Shown: one piece after another, positions 88 through 52,617 of the stretch
Layout of the letters: each line of letters begins with the position of its first letter
Position numbering within the stretch: position 1 is the first letter of the stretch
Assembly: GCA_041658665.1 (NCBI GenBank)
Contig: JBAZZR010000001.1
Span: 576-64,575, forward strand
Direction of reading: 5' to 3'
Origin: Patescibacteria group bacterium
GTDB lineage: Bacteria > Patescibacteriota > Patescibacteriia > Patescibacteriales > UBA12465
Length of the DNA: 64,000 bases
Notes under the pieces: model-generated
The model's database searches: none
Told to the model about the DNA's origin: nothing
The model's input: the letters and a program-made list of their open reading frames with translations, nothing else
Position numbers and translations under genes: made by a program

Positions 88-1290
88 GTGTCTGTCTTTG
101 ATCTTTCTTTTATCGAAAAAATAGTTGTTGTAGTTGTCTTTTCAGCAGCTCTAACAATTTTTATGGTAGAAAAGAGATGGGACTCTAGAAATAGACCGGA
201 AATAATGGTTCTCAGGAGGTTGGTACTGCTCGCTACCGGTGCGATTATTTTACTTTCTTTAGGCCAAAATAATTCTAACAAAACCAGTTTCGACATCTTC
301 TCCTGGCTAATACCTGCAGCATTATTCATAGTAATGTCTTCATTTTTTGTGTCATTTAGGGACGCCAGGTTCTTTAATAGTATCTTTAATAGTAATCATT
401 ATTACTCAGAGATAAGCAAATTGCTGGTATTTTTCCTTACCGCAGTCTGTGTTTGGCAATATTGGGTTAATTTTGGGACTCAATATGTATGGATTCCGGC
501 GGCAATATCGTTGTCTTCGATTTTTACTTGGCATGGCGATGTCGATTTCCCCGCAAAACGTCTTTTTTCCTTAGGGGTAGTAATTGCGAATATTATTGTC
601 TTAGCAGTAAGCAATCTTTACTACTTAGGATGTTTATTTTTTGCGGAGATTAAAAAAGGTTTTCGTCCTCTTGAACATCCATGGATTGCGAAAACGGCGG
701 AAATTTTGGTGATTATTATCGCAATTATTTTAGTCGTATTTGCAGCTATTAAAATTACATCCAAAAGAAATGAGAGAAAAATAAAAAAGTTGGCTGCGAA
801 AGAAGCCGAGGAAAGGCAGACTCAAAAGCTCGCTGCAGATGCAAAAGCTCAAAAGCAGTTGGAAGAGATAAAGGAAAAAATAATTTCTGGGCACGGGAAT
901 AACTGGAAAAATATTTTAACGGTCGCTAGATATTATAATTTAGACAGATATTATAATTTTAACATTGATAAATTTCAAGAAATCTGTGAAGTAATTTATA
1001 CCGTCCCTCTGTCCGAAGTAGTAACGGTATCAATGATCAAAAAACAAATTGTTTGGAATCAAGACTTCTCGTCAGCCGTTAAACTGATTGAAAAAATTGT
1101 AAGAAATACTTATAGGGATGAAAAAATTCGGTCCCACATACATCAAGTCAATAGCTTTATACAATTTCTTAAACCATATGAGCAATTTGTTGGTTATAAG
1201 GAGATTAAAGGTGAGCTGGAAAAGAATTGTCCAACGATTTGGGATCTCATTTTTTCCCCTGCTCTTGTAGAAAAAAATGAAATAAAATAA
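88..1290 (+). CDS. Multi-pass membrane protein with central charged coiled-coil segment; function unknown
   Basis: 400-aa ORF (GTG at 88; true start uncertain). Several hydrophobic helices in the first ~230 aa, then KKLAAKEAEERQTQKLAADAKAQKQLEE. Own hairpin+T-run terminator follows. Confidence 0.6.
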   Translation: MSVFDLSFIEKIVVVVVFSAALTIFMVEKRWDSRNRPEIMVLRRLVLLATGAIILLSLGQNNSNKTSFDIFSWLIPAALFIVMSSFFVSFRDARFFNSIFNSNHYYSEISKLLVFFLTAVCVWQYWVNFGTQYVWIPAAISLSSIFTWHGDVDFPAKRLFSLGVVIANIIVLAVSNLYYLGCLFFAEIKKGFRPLEHPWIAKTAEILVIIIAIILVVFAAIKITSKRNERKIKKLAAKEAEERQTQKLAADAKAQKQLEEIKEKIISGHGNNWKNILTVARYYNLDRYYNFNIDKFQEICEVIYTVPLSEVVTVSMIKKQIVWNQDFSSAVKLIEKIVRNTYRDEKIRSHIHQVNSFIQFLKPYEQFVGYKEIKGELEKNCPTIWDLIFSPALVEKNEIK

Positions 1291-1345: not shown

Positions 1346-1353
1346 TATTTCTG

Positions 1354-1415
1354 AATTTAAAGTTAAACTGCCAAATGAGCTCCAAACGAGAAACACCATT
1401 TTATTGGTGTTTTTT
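1354..1415 (+). repeat. Box+hairpin intergenic element, copy a (most divergent box)
   Basis: AATTTAAAGTTAAACTGCCAAATGAGCTCCA, then hairpin ACACCA-TTTTAT-TGGTGT and a T-run. The hairpin is nearly identical to that of copy d. Confidence 0.6.
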
Positions 1416-1454
1416 GTTGTCTATTCATCAATTAAGGTTTAGCCGTAACGGGAA

Positions 1455-1483
1455 TTGAAAAGCGTTTACTTAAACGTTATAAT
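1455..1483 (+). promoter_or_regulatory. Sigma70-like promoter of the HD gene (leaderless geometry)
   Basis: TTGAAA (1455-1460), 17-nt spacer, TATAAT (1478-1483). The ATG at 1490 lies 7 nt after the -10, at the expected transcription start. Confidence 0.55.
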
Positions 1484-1489
1484 TAGATT

Positions 1490-2137
1490 ATGAATAAAGC
1501 AGTGATTATTAAAAAAACCGCAGCATTTGCCAAGCAAAAATTATCCGGCGAAGGTAGCGGGCATGATTTTTGGCATGTTTATCGAGTCTGGAAAATGGCA
1601 GTATATTTAGCTAAGAAAGAAAAAGCGGACTTGTTTACTGTGCAGTTAGTCGCGCTATTGCATGATATTGCCGATTGGAAGTTTAATGATAATGATAAAG
1701 AGGGGAGTATTTTGTCTAAAAAATGGTTGCAAACACTACAGGTCGACGATGAACAGATTAATAAAGTTTGTAATATTATTGATCGGGTTTCTTTTAAAGG
1801 AGCTGGTGTTGTTAATAAAATAGAAAGTGAGGGCATGGTAGTCCAGGACGCCGATCGGCTCGATGCGATTGGAGCCATTGGTATCGCCCGAACATTTGCC
1901 TACAATGGGTTTAGGCAGAGAGAAATATATAATCCAGATATAAAGCCTAAATTTCATAAAACTTTTGCTTCGTATAAAAAAAATAATAGTACGGCGATAA
2001 ACCATTTTTATGAAAAGCTCTTACTTTTAAAGGATTTAATGAATACCAGAACAGCTAAAAAAATTGCCCGACATCGTCATCAAATCATGAGCCAGTATTT
2101 AAAAGAATTTTTTCAGGAATGGAACGCCAAGACGTAG
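1490..2137 (+). CDS. HD-domain metal-dependent phosphohydrolase
   Basis: H...HD signature (GHDFWHVYRV ... LLHDIADWK ... QDADRLDAIGAIGIARTF), typical of the HD superfamily; 215 aa. Confidence 0.85.
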   Translation: MNKAVIIKKTAAFAKQKLSGEGSGHDFWHVYRVWKMAVYLAKKEKADLFTVQLVALLHDIADWKFNDNDKEGSILSKKWLQTLQVDDEQINKVCNIIDRVSFKGAGVVNKIESEGMVVQDADRLDAIGAIGIARTFAYNGFRQREIYNPDIKPKFHKTFASYKKNNSTAINHFYEKLLLLKDLMNTRTAKKIARHRHQIMSQYLKEFFQEWNAKT

Positions 2138-2207
2138 AATTTATAGCCAAACTCCAAACTTCAAAAGGAGCTTAATAATAAAAATAGACTAATATTAGTC
2201 TATTTTT
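2138..2207 (+). repeat. Box+hairpin intergenic element, copy b
   Basis: AATTTATAGCCAAACT[CCAAACT]TCAAAAGGAGCTTAA starts immediately after the TAG stop, then hairpin ATAGACTA-ATAT-TAGTCTAT and a T-run. Contains an internal 7-nt duplication. Confidence 0.7.
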
Positions 2208-2248
2208 ATTATTAATGAAAATACATTTTAGTTGTGATTTATAAAATA

Positions 2249-2277
2249 TTGACAATATGATATATAAATGATATAAT
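2249..2277 (+). promoter_or_regulatory. Consensus sigma70-like promoter
   Basis: TTGACA (2249-2254), 17-nt spacer, TATAAT (2272-2277), ~145 nt upstream of the ATG at 2425. Confidence 0.6.
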
Positions 2278-2305
2278 TATTTAATTCTTTAATAAACACT
2301 ATTAG

Positions 2306-2369
2306 TGGCCATAACCAAAAAATGCTGATTCTATCGGCGTTTTCTGGTTATGACCAACAACGGTCATAA
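2306..2369 (+). promoter_or_regulatory. Structured 5' leader with two mutually exclusive hairpins
   Basis: Hairpin A pairs 2306-2322 with 2340-2356 (15 of 17 positions). Hairpin B pairs 2348-2355 with 2362-2369 (8 perfect bp). Segment 2348-2355 is needed by both. Confidence 0.45.
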
Positions 2370-2424
2370 TTCCTTCTCGGATGAGAGAAAATAAAAGGCG
2401 CAAATTAGCGCTAGGAGATTTATC

Positions 2425-3069
2425 ATGGATAAAAGTGAATTTATTATTTCTGGTTTGACGGGTGGCCAGCTCAATGCTTTGGTCAAAAATATTATGTCAC
2501 AAACAGGAGCTAGCACTCCTGACGAAGCGGTCAGGAGAATTAACGCCGGTGAGTGCGTTATTAAACGTTGGCGGAAAGACATAGAATCTGGAAATATTTT
2601 TTTAACTATTGAATCTAAAGGATATAATGGTTTCAGCTGGGCGGTCACTCTACAAAATGAGGGTTTCTATTTAGATGATTCTGTTAGAAAAGTATTCTTT
2701 TCAGACGATTTTAAGTCACACACTATTTTCATGGACGGCATTGTATCGAAGATTATTATTACTAAAGGATGGGTTCATGCAGAGGAAAACCACGGCAGGA
2801 GAATTCGCACGAAGAATGGTTGGCGTAATTTAACCGCGCCATCTATTGATGCGATCTGCTCTATTTTAGATGATGCTGAAGATATTATGGTAAACATGGG
2901 CTTATCTTCCATTATCGTCATGCATAATCCTATTAAAATTTCATCCGGCGAAGAGATTAATTTTAATATAATTCGTCATGGCCCTTCTTTTGGCATTGAG
3001 GCTTGCAGTGACATTATATATTATAGATCTTTACGGACCGATGTCGGTTTTGCTTGGCTCATTTCGTAA
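2425..3069 (+). CDS. Hypothetical protein (orphan)
   Basis: 214-aa ORF with TAGGAG Shine-Dalgarno ~8 nt upstream and its own terminator at 3113-3137; no family recognised. Confidence 0.6.
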   Translation: MDKSEFIISGLTGGQLNALVKNIMSQTGASTPDEAVRRINAGECVIKRWRKDIESGNIFLTIESKGYNGFSWAVTLQNEGFYLDDSVRKVFFSDDFKSHTIFMDGIVSKIIITKGWVHAEENHGRRIRTKNGWRNLTAPSIDAICSILDDAEDIMVNMGLSSIIVMHNPIKISSGEEINFNIIRHGPSFGIEACSDIIYYRSLRTDVGFAWLIS

Positions 3070-3112
3070 GTTATTGTCAGATAGTTTATTAAGTTTGAGT
3101 AATCAAACTACT

Positions 3113-3137
3113 GAGCGTTAGTGATAACGCTCTTTTT
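3113..3137 (+). terminator. Intrinsic terminator of ORF 2425-3069
   Basis: GAGCGTTA-GTGA-TAACGCTC hairpin followed by TTTTT. Confidence 0.7.
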
Positions 3138-3146
3138 ATTTCTCTA

Positions 3147-3208
3147 AATTTATGACCAAACCGCCAAAGGAGCCCACAAAACATTAACAGACAGAGATGC
3201 CTGTTTTT
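3147..3208 (+). repeat. Box+hairpin intergenic element, copy c
   Basis: AATTTATGACCAAACCGCCAAAGGAGCCCAC, then a weak AACAG...CTGTT hairpin and T-run. It lies downstream of an independent terminator. Confidence 0.65.
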
Positions 3209-3210
3209 GT

Positions 3211-3239
3211 TTGAACTTTTAATTTATATTTGGTATATT
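3211..3239 (+). promoter_or_regulatory. Sigma70-like promoter of ORF 3262
   Basis: TTGAAC, 17-nt spacer, TATATT; short leader without an obvious Shine-Dalgarno. Confidence 0.45.
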
Positions 3240-3261
3240 TGTTTTATAATCAGTAGAAAAT

Positions 3262-3681
3262 ATGAATGAATTCGCCGAAAAATACGGAGTAACGGAAGAT
3301 GAAAATACGGTCACCTTTCATCAAAGTCGTAGGATGTTTTGTGTACATCAAAATATTTTATTTATCGCAGAGCAGAACCTTCCTTATTCTCATGCGGTTT
3401 GGTTCGAAAAAGAAGATTGGTTGCCAAAAGTCGAAGTCGACCTAATAATGGAAATAGTCAGAGGAGTTGTCGATAGTCAGGGGGATATATATTTTTATAT
3501 TGGTTATAATTTTGAGATAAATAATGATTGTGAACATGTATTTTTTTCTCATCTTAAAGAATTAGTTGACAAGCTGAAATTAAGCCCCGAGGCTAAAATA
3601 TTTGGCGGTTTGATAAAATCGGAACCGGGTCAAATTTGGTCACCAGTTAAAAGTTATGGTAAGATTTCTGAAAATTTATAA
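3262..3681 (+). CDS. Hypothetical protein (orphan)
   Basis: 139-aa ORF; no family recognised. Its last codons and stop lie inside box copy d. Confidence 0.6.
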   Translation: MNEFAEKYGVTEDENTVTFHQSRRMFCVHQNILFIAEQNLPYSHAVWFEKEDWLPKVEVDLIMEIVRGVVDSQGDIYFYIGYNFEINNDCEHVFFSHLKELVDKLKLSPEAKIFGGLIKSEPGQIWSPVKSYGKISENL

Positions 3682-3737
3682 CCAAACCGCAGAAGGAGCT
3701 TAATCTAGAAAAAACACCAGGTTATTGGTGTTTTTTT
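3673..3737 (+). repeat. Box+hairpin intergenic element, copy d (closest to consensus)
   Basis: AATTTATAACCAAACCGCAGAAGGAGCTTAA, then hairpin ACACCA-GGTTAT-TGGTGT and T7. The box overlaps codons N-L-stop of ORF 3262-3681. Confidence 0.75.
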
Positions 3738-3748
3738 GCTTCTCTAGA

Positions 3749-4801
3749 CTAGTCTCTTCGATATTTGTCTATTTCCTGTTTTATGATAGCCGTAACTTTG
3801 TCTGGCGGCAGATTTTCGTCATAAAAAATATTATGGTAGTTATTGGGTTCAATACCCAGGACTCTGAGTATTTCCCAGACTTTATCCTGCTGCTTAACAA
3901 AATGATCCGGCAAAACTACTAGATGGGATATTTGTAAATTTTCCGGTTTTAAATAGGACGAAGCGTCTAAAGCCTCGCACATCCAACGGCCATTTTTTGT
4001 TTTTAATGTAATTTCTGAATATTCTGGATTTTCGGCGTCGGGGTTAATAAATTTAATTGCCTCTCCGTTCTTCTGTAAATAATTTTTACCATTAACATTC
4101 TCTAATCTAGCCACCAATTGCTCCGCTTCCTTCACCTTTTCGCTTTCCGATATCAAAAGGTAATTTTTTCCGGCGGCATCATCATTTTTTAGGACGCCTC
4201 GGTGTTGTAAAATATTTTCAATATTCTTTTTAAAATTAATTTTAGCCGTGTCGGAAATTGGCAATTGCGGCGCATCACGTAGTGGTAGCCCGCGAGCATC
4301 AGAGGAGTCAGACATTTCACTATTATATTCATCATATAAAGAAATCATTCTGGCTTCGGGAAATTCTTCACGCAGGGTTTTGGCCACGGCGAGGCCGATC
4401 TCATCGGATTTTACTAACATGTTTTCCCAGATATCTCCGGTCTTGCGATTATAGTCGGCTAAATAGGGGCTGAAACTTTCAAACTCTAAAGGTCGCCCTG
4501 ATTTACATTCTGCCAGTAAAGTATCCATCTGGCACTTGGAGAAATTTACACCGTCAATTGTCGCCTCTTTTTCCGTAAACGTCAGTTCTTCGCTCATTTT
4601 TCCGATTAAGTTCGGTCTAGATTCATGGAAAGAATTAATAATTTTTCGATAATTATCTCTTATTCCTCCCATTATTCGCATAATTTCCGAGGGCCTTTTT
4701 AGAACTACCCTCTCCGATAGAGCAACATTTTCCTTTATTGTTTGAGCGTCAACCTCATTAGTCTTTTTAAGTTCGGCGTTTTCTAATTTTTCTTTAAACA
4801 T
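3749..4801 (-). CDS. Hypothetical protein (orphan)
   Basis: 350-aa ORF, the only minus-strand gene in this block; sits between box copies d and e; no family recognised. Confidence 0.65.
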   Translation of the reverse strand: MFKEKLENAELKKTNEVDAQTIKENVALSERVVLKRPSEIMRIMGGIRDNYRKIINSFHESRPNLIGKMSEELTFTEKEATIDGVNFSKCQMDTLLAECKSGRPLEFESFSPYLADYNRKTGDIWENMLVKSDEIGLAVAKTLREEFPEARMISLYDEYNSEMSDSSDARGLPLRDAPQLPISDTAKINFKKNIENILQHRGVLKNDDAAGKNYLLISESEKVKEAEQLVARLENVNGKNYLQKNGEAIKFINPDAENPEYSEITLKTKNGRWMCEALDASSYLKPENLQISHLVVLPDHFVKQQDKVWEILRVLGIEPNNYHNIFYDENLPPDKVTAIIKQEIDKYRRD

Positions 4802-4872
4802 ATAATTATCTCTGTTTTTCTTTATAATAACATATTATTTTTAACGGCACTATTATCTAATACTATTTGTTA

Positions 4873-4935
4873 AATTTATAATCAAACCGCAGAAAGAGCT
4901 TACACAAAAAATGTCTTATCCTTAGGGCATTTTTT
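4873..4935 (+). repeat. Box+hairpin intergenic element, copy e
   Basis: AATTTATAATCAAACCGCAGAAAGAGCTTAC, then an imperfect hairpin and T-run. The downstream flank TTTTTGCTATTCTAGAGAC resembles the flank of copy d (TTTTTGCTTCTCTAGAC). Confidence 0.7.
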
Positions 4936-4984
4936 GCTATTCTAGAGACATTCTTCCAAGAGGTTTACGCATTGCCAGATTTTG

Positions 4985-5013
4985 TTGAATTGTATAACAT
5001 ATTTATATATAAT
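4985..5013 (+). promoter_or_regulatory. Sigma70-like promoter of the SGNH hydrolase gene
   Basis: TTGAAT (4985-4990), 17-nt spacer, TATAAT (5008-5013). It lies inside the long ORF-track call, which supports the ATG at 5026 as the real start. Confidence 0.55.
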
Positions 5014-5025
5014 AACGTAAAAAAT

Positions 5026-5667
5026 ATGAAACAGATTTTTCTAATAGGTTCGAGCTTTGTTTATGGAGTTGGAGGAGAAAACGGAGGCTGGGGTGACTAC
5101 CTTAAACAAGCCTTGCACCAGAAAATGTATTCTGAGGGCGGAGTGGGAGAAAAATACGAAGTATATAATTTTAGTAAACCGGGAGCTACTATTGATTTTG
5201 CTATTAAAAATTTTCCTACCTGGCTAGAGCAATATGGAAGAGACGGGGAAATAATTACGATAGTTTCTACCGGTGGTAATAATGTAAAAGCTAAAAATAC
5301 TCCTGATAATTTTGTTTCCACGGTAGATGATTATATTAACCAAATGTCCGAGTTGTTGGATATTCTAAAAAAAGGTAGCAGCCATGTGATAGCAGTCGGC
5401 GGCGGATTTTATGATGAGTCTAAAACAAATCCTAAGTCTAGTCCGTTTGACGGAGAACAATCTTATTTTAAGAATGACCGGAAGCAATTATTTGAATCTC
5501 ATTTCAAGCAGCTCTGCCAAGAAAAAGATATTACATTTATTCCCTTAGATATTGATGAGAATAGTTGGAAAGCTAACTATTTGTACAAAGATGGTCTACA
5601 TTCAAATATGGCTGGGCATAAATTAATCAGTCAGAAAGTATTAAATGAGGTAGAAAAATTATTATAA
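5026..5667 (+). CDS. SGNH/GDSL-family hydrolase
   Basis: Block I GSSFVYG, block III GGNN and block V DGLHSN, typical of SGNH esterases/lipases. Start moved from 4972 to the ATG at 5026. Confidence 0.8.
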   Translation: MKQIFLIGSSFVYGVGGENGGWGDYLKQALHQKMYSEGGVGEKYEVYNFSKPGATIDFAIKNFPTWLEQYGRDGEIITIVSTGGNNVKAKNTPDNFVSTVDDYINQMSELLDILKKGSSHVIAVGGGFYDESKTNPKSSPFDGEQSYFKNDRKQLFESHFKQLCQEKDITFIPLDIDENSWKANYLYKDGLHSNMAGHKLISQKVLNEVEKLL

Positions 5668-5674
5668 TATAATC

Positions 5675-6559
5675 ATGAGAATTTTCTATTCTGATATGTC
5701 GCCCTTATATACTCAAATTACAGAATCCTCACTCTTTAAAAAAATTATAAAGCAATTTTTTCAATCCGAAGAATACGAAATTGTAGAAAGACCAGCCAGT
5801 TTTTCTGTCCGTTTAAAAGAAGAAAGTTCGGAGATAGTTAAAAGAATAATTTTACTCCCTCCACATGGCTTTACGGCCGATAAGATTAATTTATTGAGTC
5901 CTCATCCGGAGGCGCGTAATGCTAAAATAAGAATTCTTGGAAAAATTAAACCACAGAATAGGGGTCTTGCCCCAGTTAAGCAAGAAATAAAATTTGTTTT
6001 TTCTTTGATTAGAGAGATTCCGACGGAAAAAGACTCATCTTATTCCGATTATTTTAAGTTTTCTAAGGAATACTATAAAAGTCAGTTAAAATCTTGGCGG
6101 AGTTGGTTTTACGTAGTGAAAGAGAATGGTTGGGGTAATTTCCATAATTTAATTAATCTCTCTGATGATTGGGTTATCCTATTACTTGAAAAAAATCTAA
6201 TAGACAGAAAAGAAATAAATATTGATAAATTTTTAAAGCAGCTAACGATAATTGAAGCTGAAAGACTAAAAAGCAGTTTGAAGCAGATAGAGAGGGACGG
6301 AGATAAGATTTTTAGAGATGTTACTTTAGTTGAAAATATTTTAATCCTTGATCTTAAGATATTAGTCCCCATCTTAATTCGGATGTTAAATTCTTCAGAG
6401 ACCGGCAAACATGAACCTTGTACTTTTTTTGCGCTTTTATTGAAAGCCGTTAAAAAGGATAAAAAATTAGTTTTAAAAGAAGTAAATAAATCGATTAAAA
6501 TGAAGATCGCGCCGCGCTACTATTTAGAAGATTTAAAGAATAAACTCGTTAAGCATTAG
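5675..6559 (+). CDS. Hypothetical protein
   Basis: 294-aa ORF starting 7 nt after the previous stop (operon-like); no family recognised. Confidence 0.6.
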   Translation: MRIFYSDMSPLYTQITESSLFKKIIKQFFQSEEYEIVERPASFSVRLKEESSEIVKRIILLPPHGFTADKINLLSPHPEARNAKIRILGKIKPQNRGLAPVKQEIKFVFSLIREIPTEKDSSYSDYFKFSKEYYKSQLKSWRSWFYVVKENGWGNFHNLINLSDDWVILLLEKNLIDRKEINIDKFLKQLTIIEAERLKSSLKQIERDGDKIFRDVTLVENILILDLKILVPILIRMLNSSETGKHEPCTFFALLLKAVKKDKKLVLKEVNKSIKMKIAPRYYLEDLKNKLVKH

Positions 6560-11086: not shown

Positions 11087-13327
11087 ATGAAAAAATTTAA
11101 CAAAAAAGTATCAGTAGTTATTCTAGCGGTTTTAATGGTTCTTGGTTTAAGCGGTCCGATGACGGCTCTAGCGGCTGGCCCGGCCGCCGTTAATCTTTTG
11201 ACGGCTGGTAATTTTTCGATTTTATCAAAAACCGGCATTACTAATACTGGTAGTCATACTTCGGTTATCCTCGGCAATATCGGTTCTAGCCCGATTACGG
11301 CGGCAGCGATGAATAATGTTTTTTGTTCAGAAATTACGGGAACAATATATGGTACTAATGCGGCCTACGTTGGTAGTGGCGACCAAGCTTGTTTTGCCGG
11401 TAATCCGCCGTTATCTAATATGACCTTAGTAGACGATGCCGTTCTTGATATGGAAGCGGCTTACTCTAACGCGGCTTTAAGACCACTACCTGATAGCGTT
11501 GAGCCATTTCTTGGAAACATTGGCGGGCAAACGTTTGCGCCAGGACTTTATAAATGGAGCACTGATGTTAATGTTGCTAGCGATGTGACGCTTTCGGGCG
11601 GTTCTAGCGACGTTTGGATATTTCAAATAGCCGGAGATCTTAATATCGCCTCAGGCGGTAGTGTGCCGGCCGGCATTAAAGTATTACTTATTGGGGGAGC
11701 CCAAGCTTCAAATATATTTTGGCAAGTTGGGGGCCCAACCGGAGCAACACTAGGAACATACTCAACATTCAATGGGAATATTTTGAGCGCCAAACAAATT
11801 ATCATGCAAACAGGGGCTATTTTATATGGTCGGGCCTTAGCGCAAACTCAAGTTACTTTGGATGCTAATAATATTTCTACTCCGACGACCACTCCCGCGA
11901 CTTTGCATGTTATTAAACAAGTAGTAAATAATAGTGGCGGGACGGCAACTAGTTCTAATTTTAATTTACACGTTAAGCTTTCTGGAGTTGATGTCGTCGG
12001 GAGTCCAGCGGTTGGAACGACCACGCCGGGGACCACTTATTCACTAGCCGCGGGGACTTACGTAGTGAGTGAAGATATTAATGCCTCTTATGTAAAAAGT
12101 TTTAGTGGTGATTGCGATGCTAGTGGAAACGTGACTCTTGCTTCTGGCGCTAATAAAACTTGTACAATTACTAATACTGATATTCCGCCTGTTCCGGCGA
12201 CTCTTCATGTTATTAAGCTCGTTGTTAACGGTAACGGCGGGACAGCTGTTCCGGCGGATTTTAATGTGCATTTGAAAAATGCTGGCGTAGATGTAGCCGG
12301 GAGTCCGGCGGTCGGAACCTCGATACCGGGGACGGCTTATTCGCTAGCGGCGGGTACTTATGTAATAAGCGAAGATGCTAATACTTCTTATGTAAAAAGT
12401 TTTAGCGGGAATTGTGATTCTAACGGGAGCATAACTCTTGCCGCGGGTACGGATAGAACTTGTACAATTATTAATACTGATATTCCCGTGCCAGCCCCGT
12501 CTGGCGGCGGCGGAAGTATGGGGACGCCGCTTGTGCCAGTAATTGGTATTTCTAAGGTTCCAACCCCTTTAGCTTTATCAGATGGACCCGGCTCAGTTAC
12601 TTATAATTATAATGTTTGGAATGTGGGCGGACAGTTAGCCTTAATTAATGTTAAAGTTAGTGATGATAAGTGTAGTTCAGTTAGTTTGTGGTCCGGTGAT
12701 TTAAATAATAATTCTAAATTAGACCCAGGTGAAAACTGGCGATACCGTTGTGTCGCTACTCTTTCAGATACTACCACTAATACAGCGATTGCTACGGGTT
12801 ATGGCGATGATGCCTATCGTCAGATAGCGGTAGCGACAGCAGTGGCGACTGTTGTAGTTGGCGCTCCTTTGCCAGCCCCTCTTATTAATATCGTCAAAGT
12901 CCCGAGTCGTTTAACCCCGTTTCCTTTCGGAGGTGGGAATGTTAAATATACTTATACAGTAACTAACCCTGGAGTAGTAACCATGGATAACGTAACAGTT
13001 GTTGATGACAAATGTAGTCCAGTTTCTATTGTTTCTGGTGATATTGATGATGACGGGTTACTTGACCCAAGTGAAAAATGGGTTTATACCTGTCAAACTA
13101 ATGTGGCGGTTTCTACTCGTAATATTGCTACAGTCGAAGGTAGGGGTAATGGTTTTATCGCTCTCGGTTATGCTTTTGCTAATGTTTTAGTTTCTTCTCC
13201 TAGTCTTCCTAACGCGGGAGTTCCGCCGTTAGAGGAAAGTCTTTCTTGGAACTTCGTTATATTTTCTGGTCTCTTTCTGTTAGTTTCGACGGCATTATTT
13301 CTAGTTTTAAGAAAACATAAAAGTTAA
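11087..13327 (+). CDS. Sortase-anchored modular surface protein with ice-binding-like (DUF3494-type) N-terminal domain
   Basis: Signal peptide. LLTAGNFSILSKTGITNTG...GNIGSSP and ...YGRALAQTQVTL resemble the DUF3494 beta-helix. Then 2 x 100-aa repeats and 2 x ~110-aa DUF11-like repeats. C-terminal LPNAG, hydrophobic helix and RKHKS form a sorting signal. Confidence 0.8.
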   Translation: MKKFNKKVSVVILAVLMVLGLSGPMTALAAGPAAVNLLTAGNFSILSKTGITNTGSHTSVILGNIGSSPITAAAMNNVFCSEITGTIYGTNAAYVGSGDQACFAGNPPLSNMTLVDDAVLDMEAAYSNAALRPLPDSVEPFLGNIGGQTFAPGLYKWSTDVNVASDVTLSGGSSDVWIFQIAGDLNIASGGSVPAGIKVLLIGGAQASNIFWQVGGPTGATLGTYSTFNGNILSAKQIIMQTGAILYGRALAQTQVTLDANNISTPTTTPATLHVIKQVVNNSGGTATSSNFNLHVKLSGVDVVGSPAVGTTTPGTTYSLAAGTYVVSEDINASYVKSFSGDCDASGNVTLASGANKTCTITNTDIPPVPATLHVIKLVVNGNGGTAVPADFNVHLKNAGVDVAGSPAVGTSIPGTAYSLAAGTYVISEDANTSYVKSFSGNCDSNGSITLAAGTDRTCTIINTDIPVPAPSGGGGSMGTPLVPVIGISKVPTPLALSDGPGSVTYNYNVWNVGGQLALINVKVSDDKCSSVSLWSGDLNNNSKLDPGENWRYRCVATLSDTTTNTAIATGYGDDAYRQIAVATAVATVVVGAPLPAPLINIVKVPSRLTPFPFGGGNVKYTYTVTNPGVVTMDNVTVVDDKCSPVSIVSGDIDDDGLLDPSEKWVYTCQTNVAVSTRNIATVEGRGNGFIALGYAFANVLVSSPSLPNAGVPPLEESLSWNFVIFSGLFLLVSTALFLVLRKHKS
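11894..12493 (+). repeat. Tandem 300-nt (100-aa) intragenic repeat, 2 copies
   Basis: PATLHVIKQVVNNSGGTA...CTITNTDIP versus PATLHVIKLVVNGNGGTA...CTIINTDIP. Unit starts are at 11894 and 12194. Confidence 0.9.
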
Positions 13328-28578: not shown

Positions 28579-29280
28579 TTAGCGGCTAATATTATTGGCC
28601 ATTAAACACTCTGAATCCACGAGGTAAAAGACATCAAATTACGGCGGCAATATCAAGTAATTGATATTGGTATAAAAAGTTGACTCATATCGATGGAGTC
28701 CTAACAAGAGTTGAAAAACAACCTGTCATATGTTAGGATAATATCGAGGGAAGTCGCTTATGTTAAAATTAACGCAACAACAATTAGCGTATTTAGCAGG
28801 ATTCATTGATGGTGATGGGAGTATTTATGTAAGACTTAAGCCGAATGATACTTATCGTTATGGTTTTCAGATAGCTCCTTATATAATATTATTCCAATCC
28901 GCCAAAGATGAGGTAAATTTTCAGAAGATTTGTGAAATGCTAGATTGCGGCTATTTGCGAAGAAGAAAAGATGGAATTTTAGAGTATACTATCGGTAGAA
29001 AAGAAGAGATATTGTCTTTAATCCAAAAGATTAAACCATACTTAATTCTAAAACACCGGCAGGCAGATTTATTAGAGAAGATATTTAAATATAAGTCTCT
29101 AGTAAAAAATGCCCATGATTTTTCCAAATTAATGGATTTAATCAATCAATTTGGGGAGATAAATTATTCTAAGAAACGCATCAAACATAAGTTGACCCCG
29201 TAGAGACTAAACGTCAGCCTCCTGAAAGCGTTTCAGGATGAAGGTATAGTCCAATGCACTTAGTAATAAGTGAAAACATG
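28579..29280 (+). mobile_element. Group I intron at the E. coli U2593-equivalent site (the I-CreI / Cr.LSU site)
   Basis: Joining 28578 to 29281 restores GGGTTCAGACCGT|CGTAAGACAGGTCGGTC (E. coli GGGTTTAGAACGTCGTGAGACAGTTCGGTC). Exon 1 ends in U and the intron ends in G. P7-type core GTAGAGACTAAAC / AAGGTATAGTCC. Confidence 0.85.
28760..29203 (+). CDS. Single-motif LAGLIDADG homing endonuclease, I-CreI-like, intron-encoded
   Basis: LAYLAGFIDGDGSIYVRLKPN...GYLRRRKDG...IKPYLILKHRQADLL aligns by eye with I-CreI (LLYLAGFVDGDGSIIAQIKPN...GYVRDRGSV...LQPFLKLKQKQANLV). The stop TAG lies in the P7 core. Confidence 0.9.
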   Translation: MLKLTQQQLAYLAGFIDGDGSIYVRLKPNDTYRYGFQIAPYIILFQSAKDEVNFQKICEMLDCGYLRRRKDGILEYTIGRKEEILSLIQKIKPYLILKHRQADLLEKIFKYKSLVKNAHDFSKLMDLINQFGEINYSKKRIKHKLTP

Positions 29281-36173: not shown

Positions 36174-36201
36174 TTGACTAGCTAATTGGTTTTAGTATAA
36201 T
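36174..36201 (+). promoter_or_regulatory. Sigma70-like promoter preceding box copy f
   Basis: TTGACT (36174-36179), 16-nt spacer, TATAAT (36196-36201). Confidence 0.55.
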
Positions 36202-36220
36202 GGGTAGTATGTTTAATCAT

Positions 36221-36283
36221 AATTTACAAGTAAACCGTTGGAGCCTCATTAAGCCGGTCATTATTTTAGATGGGTCGGTTTTT
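36221..36283 (+). repeat. Box+hairpin intergenic element, copy f (distal copy)
   Basis: AATTTACAAGTAAACCGTTGGAGCCTCA, then a wobble-rich hairpin CCGGTC...GGGTCGG and T-run. A second clean terminator lies at about 36340-36368. Confidence 0.55.
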
Positions 36284-36423
36284 ATTTGTAAATTGAATGC
36301 GTAAATAGTCAGACAAATTTCAATAGCAAATAAAAACCGAGTTAAAAGACTCGGTTTTTATAAAGTTCCTTTCAAATTAAATAAACCCAATTAATTCAAT
36401 CATTCATAAATAATGGAGTCCCT

Positions 36424-37236
36424 ATGTGTATTTCCTCCTTGCTGCTCATTAATCAATTTGGTTGTGAGCTAAAACAAACAGTTCTGTCCGATTCAATAAA
36501 GAATGAGGTTGCGGCGGCGGTTTCTCATTGGACCGCTTGTCTAGCTAGCAGCTTAACCGAGGGACAGCCCTCGGTGATCGCGGCGAAATGTGTTTTAAGA
36601 TCCGGCTCAGTTGATATTTTGAATTTTCAAAAAGATCCAAAAAGTTTTATTTTGGTAAAAGAGTTGCATCCGTTAGCTAAATCTTTATTGAAGGGTCATT
36701 CGGAAAAACCGGCCAATAAGAAGAAGCTGTCTCGTAATGGGTCAGCGCTAGCGCCAGTCGGTTTCTTCAAGCCTAAACGTAACTCGAAGGGAAGTTCAAT
36801 AGTTAAATTTCCAGAAGAGTTTCGAACCGGCGATTATCGGGAACTTCCCTTTAATCAGGGCTTACGAGTTTCAGGGCCATTTAGTCAGGTCAGGATATTA
36901 CCGTCCGAAGAAACTTTAGCGATTCTAAAAAAGCATAGAATTAAAGGTGGTCCTCCCAATAAAAATACGGTGCAAGGTTTTAACGAACATAAGGTTAAAG
37001 GGATATCGACCAAACCGCAAATACTCCGGTATTTGAAAGAAGTCGAGGTTTACGGGCCTAAATTATATAAGTATGTTGAACCAGTTTTTTATGATGATGG
37101 ACGGGTTTTAATTCATAAGTTATATTGGGCCAAAACGCCCAATGGATACGTTTATATGGGTGGTTTATCCATTGCCAGCCAGAATATAAACGTATCATTG
37201 AATGATGATTGGGTTTCTATTGGCTTAATCCAATAG
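36424..37236 (+). CDS. Hypothetical protein (orphan)
   Basis: 270-aa ORF with GGAG Shine-Dalgarno; no family recognised. Confidence 0.55.
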   Translation: MCISSLLLINQFGCELKQTVLSDSIKNEVAAAVSHWTACLASSLTEGQPSVIAAKCVLRSGSVDILNFQKDPKSFILVKELHPLAKSLLKGHSEKPANKKKLSRNGSALAPVGFFKPKRNSKGSSIVKFPEEFRTGDYRELPFNQGLRVSGPFSQVRILPSEETLAILKKHRIKGGPPNKNTVQGFNEHKVKGISTKPQILRYLKEVEVYGPKLYKYVEPVFYDDGRVLIHKLYWAKTPNGYVYMGGLSIASQNINVSLNDDWVSIGLIQ

Positions 37237-52219: not shown

Positions 52220-52285
52220 AAATAAAATTGAACTCACGGTGACAGTATAAATTATAACATGAGTTCAATTATTTATCTATTTTTG

Positions 52286-52617
52286 TGCCCCGGGTCAGAA
52301 TCGAACTGACGACACAAGGATTTTCCTTGTTATGGCTTGGCTTAAGTTTCCTTAAGGATTGGACTATATCATCCCCGCTTATTTCTAAGGACGGGGTCGG
52401 GCGCTCGAGGCGGGTTTATTGTTGGGCTCACCCGCTAGTCTCTACACCTTCCTCAATTCTTTATCCCAATTGAGGCTTGGCTCGGGATTACCATTTTTAT
52501 TTACTAGATTGAGGTAAATAAATTTAGGCTTCCCCGAATTCACCCGATTTTCATCTTAATGTTTCCATTAAGCGGACCGAAAATCAGTCCTTTGCTCTAC
52601 CACTGAGCTACCGAGGC
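52286..52617 (-). tRNA. tRNA-Phe (anticodon GAA) interrupted by a group I intron in the anticodon loop
   Basis: Exons 52617-52586 and 52325-52286 join to GCCTCGGTAGCTCAGTGGTAGAGCAAAGGACT|GAAAATCCTTGTGTCGTCAGTTCGATTCTGACCCGGGGCA. This closely resembles E. coli tRNA-Phe. Confidence 0.85.
52326..52585 (-). mobile_element. Group I intron (260 nt, ORF-less) in tRNA-Phe
   Basis: P1 GGACU/GGUCC with a U-G wobble at the 5' splice site and terminal G. P2 CUUAAUG-GAAA-CAUUAAG. P8 GCGGGU...ACCCGC. P9 CUUAAG-GAAA-CUUAAG. P7 core GUAGAGACUAGC / GAUAUAGUCC. Confidence 0.8.

Follow-up and report, generated by a model that had tools for sequence, protein, structure and literature searches.

The stretch of DNA analyzed here (hereafter, the window) comprises 64,000 nt of contig JBAZZR010000001.1 from a Patescibacteria group bacterium, and near its left end it carries five copies of a 32-nt sequence, the box, each followed by a hairpin and a T-run. 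We found that the boxes belong to a same-orientation array of small units located behind a tRNA-Gly gene. The DNA that follows the boxes is joined to them at the same nucleotide at which related DNA is joined to tRNA-Gly; a complete cassette unit bounded at this nucleotide is conserved between genomes, and strains differ from one another at the boxes. The boxes are probably the element-side, right-hand arms of small cassettes inserted serially at the 3′ end of tRNA-Gly. The original prediction had offered cassette boundaries left by site-specific recombination as one option, along with a family of 3′-untranslated region (3′-UTR) or small RNA (sRNA) modules and an element resembling a miniature inverted-repeat transposable element (MITE). 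The strain differences, the tRNA-Gly anchor, the shared junction and the conserved unit favour the first of these, while recombination itself is a process that we infer.

The box family

A sequence-only covariance model was built from 39 box copies (36 from other genomes plus copies c, d and e of the window) and used to score every position of the window. All five clustered boxes, named a to e (Table 1), were recovered on the plus strand with 28–40 bits and E-values of 1e-7 to 1e-11, and in shuffled sequences the earlier consensus, with up to three mismatches allowed, is expected to occur by chance 0 times. The sixth copy that had been claimed at 36220–36237 (plus strand) is not a member of the family, as it scores 7.3 bits (E = 0.37) and aligns to model positions 4–21 only. 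This rejected copy is preceded by a consensus promoter (TTGACT-17-TATAAT, 36176–36204) and followed by a weak hairpin and a T-run, and a second terminator lies at about 36333–36360, ahead of a gene at 36424. The region 36176–36285 may be a short leader or a small RNA, unrelated to the box family.

The predicted layout of the five clustered copies held up in most details. Folding leaves the box unpaired and places behind each copy a simple, near-perfect terminator stem with a T-run. Complete terminators precede copies a and c, the stop codon of the open reading frame (ORF) 3262–3681 falls inside copy d, the hairpin ACACCA..TGGTGT (family D12) is common to copies a and d, and the tail TTTTTGCT..TCTAGA is common to copies d and e. 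Each interval between boxes contains one gene, and the plus-strand genes have sigma-70-like promoters at the positions given in Table 1. Searching Rfam 15 gave no match on the boxes at gathering thresholds, nor any match over the array at E-values up to 1.

The consensus of the box is AAATTTATAACCAAACTGCAAAAGGAGC, followed by TCCA or TCAC and then by a variable hairpin. A degenerate pattern matching copies a, c, d and e was used to search for the family elsewhere, and it returned 10 contigs of Patescibacteria genomes (Falkowbacteria, Parcubacteria/Paceibacterota and unclassified) and about 25 metagenome contigs, plus a few further matches that are apparently due to chance. About 23 Patescibacteria contigs carry the box. 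Because this pattern fixed AATTTA, AAAC and GAGC, the invariance of these positions is partly by construction. In the copies found only by the model the best-kept parts are ATTTATAAC and GAGC; across the family the first G of GGAG can be G, A, T or C, while GAGC is kept. The arrays, which occur in Falkowbacteria-like Patescibacteria, contain 2–5 boxes per contig (five in L044, four in L022 and four in L011), always on one strand, at a spacing of roughly 350–2900 bp. The stop codon of a long co-oriented upstream ORF is found from 8 nt before to 10 nt after the start of the box. Another subset of boxes is positioned at a fixed distance behind a terminator, via the motif TTTTTTATTTYCCYA, and boxes just behind a complete terminator also occur in L007, L017, L036, L041 and L045.

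No further box was detected in about 84 kb of this genome, the 64-kb window included, in about 55 kb of other loci, including the stretch past the right end of the window, or in 21 kb of another patescibacterial genome. It had been considered that boxes might occur genome-wide at the terminators of core genes; in the regions searched many core-gene terminators carry no box, and the box is therefore a special element rather than a general terminator. The bit scores reveal no consistent trend of box decay with distance from the tRNA. Neither the box nor patescibacterial cassette arrays at tRNA-Gly turned up in the literature searched by exact sequence and by keyword.

Three other identities of the box were tried and rejected. 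As a diverged tRNA 3′ half, it aligns over its last 6 nt only; as a promoter, it has no conserved −35 element upstream; and as a coding sequence, it has unrelated sequences upstream in the different copies and a stop codon in two of the three frames. A single match in a viral contig, located inside an ORF and without an array, was taken as chance, and the viral collection has no credible copy. Separately, a contig binned as Ignavibacteriaceae (L005, 2480–2512, minus strand) carries a box identical to copy d at 29 of 30 positions, which is too close for chance. This copy lies within the 3′ end of a 396-aa ORF that reads through the one open frame of the box, and it suggests either a mis-binned contig or a transfer.

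The box could instead be an RNA element of the 3′-UTR, acting as a protein site, through pairing of AAGGAG with the 3′ end of 16S rRNA, or as part of an sRNA, and thereby exerting post-transcriptional control over accessory genes. Its position is compatible with this idea: stop codons are found near the box start, the box itself provides TAA in two frames, and lying upstream of a terminator it would be transcribed together with its purine-rich AAAGGAG. We nevertheless consider this explanation improbable. Copies a and c, as well as several elsewhere, sit behind complete terminators, copy e has no co-oriented upstream gene, and the box has neither a conserved fold nor an Rfam match. Moreover, copy a is decayed while its orthologue in L016 is near consensus, and the element is confined to one locus. 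The Shine-Dalgarno-like seed of the original prediction is weakened in particular by the variable first G of GGAG and by the copies located behind terminators. An RNA-level role of the box could coexist with the cassette reading, or with the exchange by homology discussed below.

The tRNA-Gly anchor and the shared junction

In 13 contigs (L007, L009, L011, L014, L019, L020, L022, L027, L036, L038, L041, L045 and L046) a co-oriented tRNA-Gly gene lies 0.8–3.1 kb upstream of the first box. In nine of the 13, as in the window's own genome, this gene is located downstream of transfer-messenger RNA (tmRNA) and tRNA-Leu. On the 821,845-bp contig that contains the window, the genes to its left, which lie outside the sequence available to the original prediction, encode NusA, H+-PPase, trigger factor, SmpB, tmRNA, tRNA-Leu(TAA) and tRNA-Gly(GCC). 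The left flank with tig, smpB and PPase is conserved between species, and a gene with a PEP-utilizer domain is likewise shared between genomes and marks the distal end of the array in several of them; almost no content is shared between these two borders.

Among the contigs with this flank, L046 (Ga0247842_10006680, 12,925 bp) has an identical 119-nt stretch at both ends despite carrying the housekeeping genes for PPase, tig, smpB and tmRNA; it probably reflects assembly cycling through a repeat and not a true circle. Several short contigs have their ends at a box, a tRNA-Gly 3′ copy or the DNA behind it, or close to one of these, as expected of repeats with variable neighbours.

The 130 nt after the ...GAGC of each box were clustered together with the 130 nt after the ...CCCGC of each tRNA-Gly. 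The sequences fall into few families, here called trailers, five of which occur both behind boxes and behind tRNA-Gly or a 3′-end copy of it. Type a is found after tRNA-Gly in L007 and after 13 boxes, a and d of the window among them. Type c is found after tRNA-Gly in L020, after a tRNA-Gly 3′ copy in the window's genome (L001) and after 12 boxes, c among them. Type g contains two hairpins and is found after tRNA-Gly in seven contigs and after six boxes; type e after tRNA-Gly(TCC) in L019 and after seven boxes, including e; and type 5 after tRNA-Gly in L001 and after three boxes. The hairpin of trailer b also occurs after boxes in L016 and L027.

The similarity between trailers of one type begins at an identical nucleotide in both contexts, namely GGAGC/TCCA after a box and CCCGC/TCCA after tRNA-Gly (the slash marks the junction). 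This position corresponds to the discriminator base plus the CCA of the tRNA, and trailers open with T plus CCA or CAC. The junction thus lies inside the tRNA gene, whose 3′ end is restored by the inserted DNA, as in tRNA-targeting elements. Upstream of this position box and tRNA have nothing more in common, so that each box is attached to what elsewhere is the 3′ end of tRNA-Gly and its terminator. The pairing of the trailer stems is kept through compensatory changes, for instance in type c, as expected of working terminators. Box and hairpin, which had been taken for one element, belong to adjacent units; that the hairpin after each box belongs to the next unit would explain why the hairpins vary and the boxes do not.

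The separability of the hairpin, which follows tRNA-Gly without any box, also bears on the proposal that box plus hairpin is a non-autonomous MITE-like or repetitive extragenic palindromic (REP)-like element targeting terminators. A short, non-coding repeat found in multiple copies in many genomes would suit such an element; however, terminal inverted repeats and target duplications are absent, and the copies of each genome occur at one locus and in one orientation, the five of the window within 3.6 kb. The MITE-like option is largely refuted by its lack of inverted ends and by its single locus and orientation, and we regard it as very improbable.

A conserved cassette unit and its cargo

The arrays of L045 and L044 share a complete unit consisting of TCCA, trailer a, a 133-aa gene, a terminator and a box, with 69% identity at the DNA level and 60% at the protein level. 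In L045 the unit comes after a tRNA-Gly 3′ copy and in L044 after a box, its homology extends from GCTCCA to the next GAGC, and after its terminal box there is trailer a in L045 and trailer c in L044. A 177-aa gene is present in L044 and L022 with the same terminator and box, though with unrelated upstream flanks; therefore, the firm linkage is that between gene and box, and the full unit is trailer-gene-box. Leaving aside the PEP-utilizer flank gene, the 177-aa and 133-aa genes are the only array genes that were found in common between distantly related genomes.

The cargo is accessory content, partly defence-like. In the window it comprises a gene for an HD-domain hydrolase and three genes which had been described as orphans. 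This description stands for the 214-aa and 139-aa genes, which match no family, but not for the inverted 350-aa gene, of which over 150 homologues are spread among Patescibacteria (Parcubacteria, Kerfeldbacteria, Magasanikbacteria, Komeilibacteria and Saccharimonadia). The members of this family have no Pfam domain and occur in varied contexts; one of them adjoins a Xer-like tyrosine recombinase. Arrays elsewhere carry a DpnII restriction-modification pair, an OLD-like ATPase-nuclease, a Schlafen/AlbA_2 protein, an NYN-domain protein, a TIGR02391-type (Hypoth_Ymh) protein, an S51 peptidase, an S-adenosylmethionine (SAM) methyltransferase, a cupin, a trypsin-like protease and many unknowns.

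Strain differences at the boxes

The contig L011, from a near-identical strain, matches the window over positions 1–2158 with 99.7% identity and over 3673–4898 with 97.5% identity. Between the matching stretches the window has 1514 bp that run from the right part of box b through trailer b, the 214-aa gene, box c and trailer c to the 139-aa gene. The corresponding 466 bp of L011 hold another trailer and a single membrane ORF of 97 aa, which is inverted. The left breakpoint falls at about 2156–2158 in box b and the right one at 3673 in box d. The homology finally ends at 4898 in box e, after which the window continues with trailer e and L011 with trailer c. The two strains thus differ in content, and the differences begin or end at boxes b, d and e, as is seen in integrons. 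In a related pair, L032 and L004, the difference lies between the tRNA-Gly 3′ copy and the next box.

A further strain difference concerns a non-coding unit of about 218 bp behind tRNA-Gly, composed of a type-5 terminator and a G+C-rich element, which is present in the window's genome and absent from L011. The unit is bounded by 18–21-nt repeats of the tRNA-Gly 3′ end. Its G+C-rich element forms a long closing stem (GGGAATCG...CGAAATTCCC) with covarying inner hairpins, and the unit has no match in Rfam. It recurs at other loci (Table 1), following boxes in L046 and L033; in L004 it occupies a relic tRNA-Gly 3′ fragment inside the array, a site at which the 99.8%-identical L047 lacks it. Its presence and absence are seen in two independent near-identical pairs (L001/L011 and L004/L047), a sign of recent activity at the tRNA-Gly site. 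The unit may be a small structured RNA carried on a non-autonomous integrative element and, since it encodes nothing, its mover would act in trans. Direct repeats of the tRNA 3′ end flank the 218-bp unit, whereas the box cassettes repeat GC(TCCA) only and sometimes the same trailer type.

A proposed mechanism of cassette insertion and its alternatives

On these grounds, a cassette would begin with a trailer made up of TCCA or TCAC, a terminator hairpin with T-run and, in most cases, a promoter. A single gene or a small number of genes would follow, and a box ending in ...GAGC would close the unit. Upon insertion, the cassette's own box/trailer site would be joined to the tRNA-Gly junction, between nucleotide 72 (...CCCGC) and the discriminator, CCA and terminator; an existing box/trailer junction could serve as an alternative target. 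The tRNA would keep a correct 3′ end and a terminator, both supplied by the trailer of the newcomer, while the displaced trailer would land behind the newcomer's box and terminate the new gene. Repeated insertion would then give rise to a same-orientation array. The joining would be site-specific, and a recombinase encoded at another genomic location or by a helper element would act in trans.

Several observations weigh against this mechanism. The left breakpoint of L011 lies in the middle of box b and not at GAGC/T, and together with the 7-nt duplication in box b it fits short-homology recombination between boxes. From the mid-box position it follows that either such recombination also occurs or the crossover point is not unique. 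There is no consistent link between the trailer type and the gene behind it. At the junction, GC(TCCA) is all that box and tRNA-Gly have in common, with no evident inverted core-binding arms, and neither an excised circle nor an empty site was found for a box-type cassette, the short box-bearing contigs being without terminal overlaps.

The search for an enzyme was also negative. Integrase, resolvase and transposase families were not found by Pfam in the 10 kb to the left of the window, where the original prediction had suggested looking for a recombinase, nor in the window or the roughly 5 kb after it. The negative result for tyrosine and serine recombinases, transposases and HUH enzymes covers about 84 kb around this array and the neighbours tested at the other arrays (more than 60 proteins screened with Pfam, NCBIfam and PADLOC), and in the arrays tested no box cassette was found to encode its own integrase. 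A crude regular expression for recombinase catalytic motifs gave 0 matches in 507 open frames across all loci. As no recombinase gene was found, recombination itself is a matter of inference.

A 220-aa protein is encoded between tRNA-Leu and tRNA-Gly in L022 (7675–8337, minus strand) and L045 (3054–3722, plus strand). The two copies are 38% identical to each other and have an N-terminal transposase-like helix-turn-helix (HTH) and a 'YWGEGD' motif; the protein is absent from the window's genome. As a candidate for the missing enzyme it was rejected, since it occurs in two genomes only and has no structure or family match beyond the HTH.

Alternatively, there may be no dedicated recombinase, and genes may be swapped by natural transformation and RecA, with the conserved boxes and trailers (terminator, promoter or 3′-UTR modules) serving as portable homology and with the highly conserved tmRNA-tRNA-Leu-tRNA-Gly block, boxes or trailers as anchors. 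The absence of a recombinase near any array, the recA gene in the window, the breakpoint and CCAAACT duplication in box b, which resemble short-homology events, the same trailer type ahead of unrelated genes, and the near-identity of box d in both strains despite differing upstream content all agree with such exchange. What it leaves unexplained, however, is that box and tRNA-Gly are both connected to five unrelated trailer families at one and the same position, that the 133-aa unit is bounded on both sides at this nucleotide, and that the 32-nt box is near-identical across genera while other intergenic DNA is not. In addition, the 218-bp element is a clean att-like insertion with 18–21-nt repeats. 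Exchange by RecA, with these anchors, therefore appears unlikely to us, although it is the main rival of the cassette reading and less improbable than the RNA-element explanation.

If the boxes are cassette arms, a broader picture can be drawn, which we put forward tentatively and with less confidence than the cassette reading itself. Falkowbacteria-like genomes might possess a gene-capture platform, integron-like in its working but assembled from other components, in which the tRNA-Gly 3′ end is the dock, box plus trailer-like sequence is the cassette site, and an unlinked recombinase in trans (or a helper) moves both the cassettes and the 218-bp rider; this platform could be a main route of accessory and defence-gene turnover. 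Patescibacteria have tiny genomes, and little is understood of how accessory genes enter and leave them. If true, a tRNA-Gly dock with swappable single-gene units would represent a concrete and searchable mechanism of turnover, the box would be a sequence tag by which the cassette pool could be retrieved from metagenomic data, and finding the recombinase behind it would become a well-posed problem.

Features of the locus

Table 1. Coordinates of the tRNA-Gly anchor, boxes, trailers, cassette genes and 218-bp units (window coordinates unless a contig is named; negative values lie to the left of the window).
Feature	Position	Strand	Remarks
tRNA-Gly	~-525..-453	+	ends ~450 nt before window position 1
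218-bp unit	L001 8059-8280 (about 450-230 nt left of window position 1)		behind tRNA-Gly
18-nt copy of tRNA-Gly 3′ end	~-253..-231		
Membrane-protein gene	88..1290 (gene caller start 163)	+	first unit after tRNA-Gly; own terminator 1316-1342; also in L011
Box a	1351..1386	+	31.3 bits, E 1.2e-8; degenerate copy AATTTAAAGTTAAACTGCCAAATGAGC, then TCCA
Trailer type a	1385..1483	+	TCCA, hairpin 1385-1418 and T-run, conserved spacer, promoter TTGAAA-17-TATAAT 1455-1483
HD-domain hydrolase cassette gene	1490..2137	+	PF01966, E 1.7e-11
Box b	2137..2177	+	28.1 bits; 7-nt tandem duplication CCAAACT
Trailer type b	2175..2277	+	hairpin 2175-2212; promoter TTGACA-17-TATAAT 2249-2277
214-aa cassette gene	2425..3069	+	no family match; own terminator 3113-3132; absent from L011
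Box c	3144..3180	+	38.6 bits, E 6e-11
Trailer type c	3179..3250	+	hairpin 3179-3212; promoter 3223-3250
139-aa cassette gene	3262..3681	+	no family match; absent from L011
Box d	3671..3703	+	39.8 bits
Trailer d	3708..3745	+	a-like hairpin ACACCAGGTTATTGGTGT and e-like tail TTTTTGCTTCTCTAGA
350-aa inverted cassette gene	3749..4801	-	conserved Patescibacteria family
Box e	4870..4905	+	38.3 bits; last of the array
Trailer type e	4906..5013	+	hairpin 4906-4935, tail TTTTTGCTATTCTAGAGAC, promoter 4985-5013 of GDSL gene
218-bp unit, other loci	L045 3787-3995; L004 ~5557-5757; L046 7296-7519; L033 1080-1215		

Outside the array, three other features of the window were recorded. A group I intron (Rfam, 89.7 bits) at 52285–52595 on the minus strand adjoins a tRNA-like 3′ segment and may interrupt a tRNA gene. 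An ORF for a LAGLIDADG endonuclease occupies 28760–29203 (plus strand), in the interval that separates the 5S gene from the end of the 23S match. Finally, a 746-aa surface-protein gene (Ice_binding/SpaA-like) contains a 300-bp tandem duplication at 11893–12486, whose copies are 77% identical, and is followed by a sortase gene.

Comparison with known systems

The array resembles integrons (with IntI, attI and arrays of attC cassettes) and clusters of attC sites lacking integron-integrases (CALINs) in being a same-orientation series of mostly single-gene units at one fixed platform. Also as in integrons, a repeat resembling a recombination site is found at the 3′ end of each gene, often overlapping its stop codon, each site of the array is a hybrid of two neighbouring units, and the cargo is variable, strain-dependent and largely unknown or defence-related. 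On the other hand, no intI was found next to the array, and the platform is the 3′ end of tRNA-Gly instead of attI. The integron attC site (RYYYAAC...GTTRRRY) is a structured imperfect palindrome with paired R''/L'' and L'/R' arms, whereas the 32-nt box has no complementary partner downstream. Integron cassettes are promoterless, while the units described here bring their own terminator and sigma-70-like promoter, and one of the genes is inverted. Without intI, without attC structure and with promoters of its own, the array is not a member of the integrons.

The cis-mobilizable elements of streptococcal integrative and conjugative elements (ICEs) are targeted to tRNA or tmRNA genes and show tandem accretion. 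The tycheposons of Prochlorococcus are tRNA-targeted islands with tandem accretion as well (bioRxiv 10.1101/2020.12.28.424599). On the cassette reading, our array has in common with tRNA-targeted islands that insertion takes place at the 3′ part of a tRNA gene whose end is restored, that newcomers shift older units deeper, that units without an integrase persist, and that the sites are hot spots of strain variation. It differs from them in the nature of its repeats and units: the inter-unit repeats of the islands are partial tRNA copies of about 40 nt and many of their units carry an integrase, whereas here the repeat is a non-tRNA box sharing about 2–6 nt with the tRNA, the units are single-gene and measure 0.5–1.5 kb, and no recombinase was found in any of them.

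Small modules with short conserved sites that are moved by a host recombinase encoded elsewhere are known from Xer-dependent dif modules (pdif) and from integrative mobile elements exploiting Xer (IMEX). However, dif-like sites are 28-bp imperfect palindromes whose orientation alternates in pdif modules, and the box is non-palindromic and found in one orientation. With intrinsic terminators the array shares the G+C-containing hairpin and T-run after every box, which very likely terminate the upstream gene; yet a terminator does not need a conserved 32-nt box upstream, and the core-gene terminators in the searched regions are without it. The most economical account would be that cassettes are inserted serially at the 3′ end of tRNA-Gly, or at an existing box/trailer junction, a process that would resemble an integron in function and, at the same time, the tandem accretion of tRNA islands.

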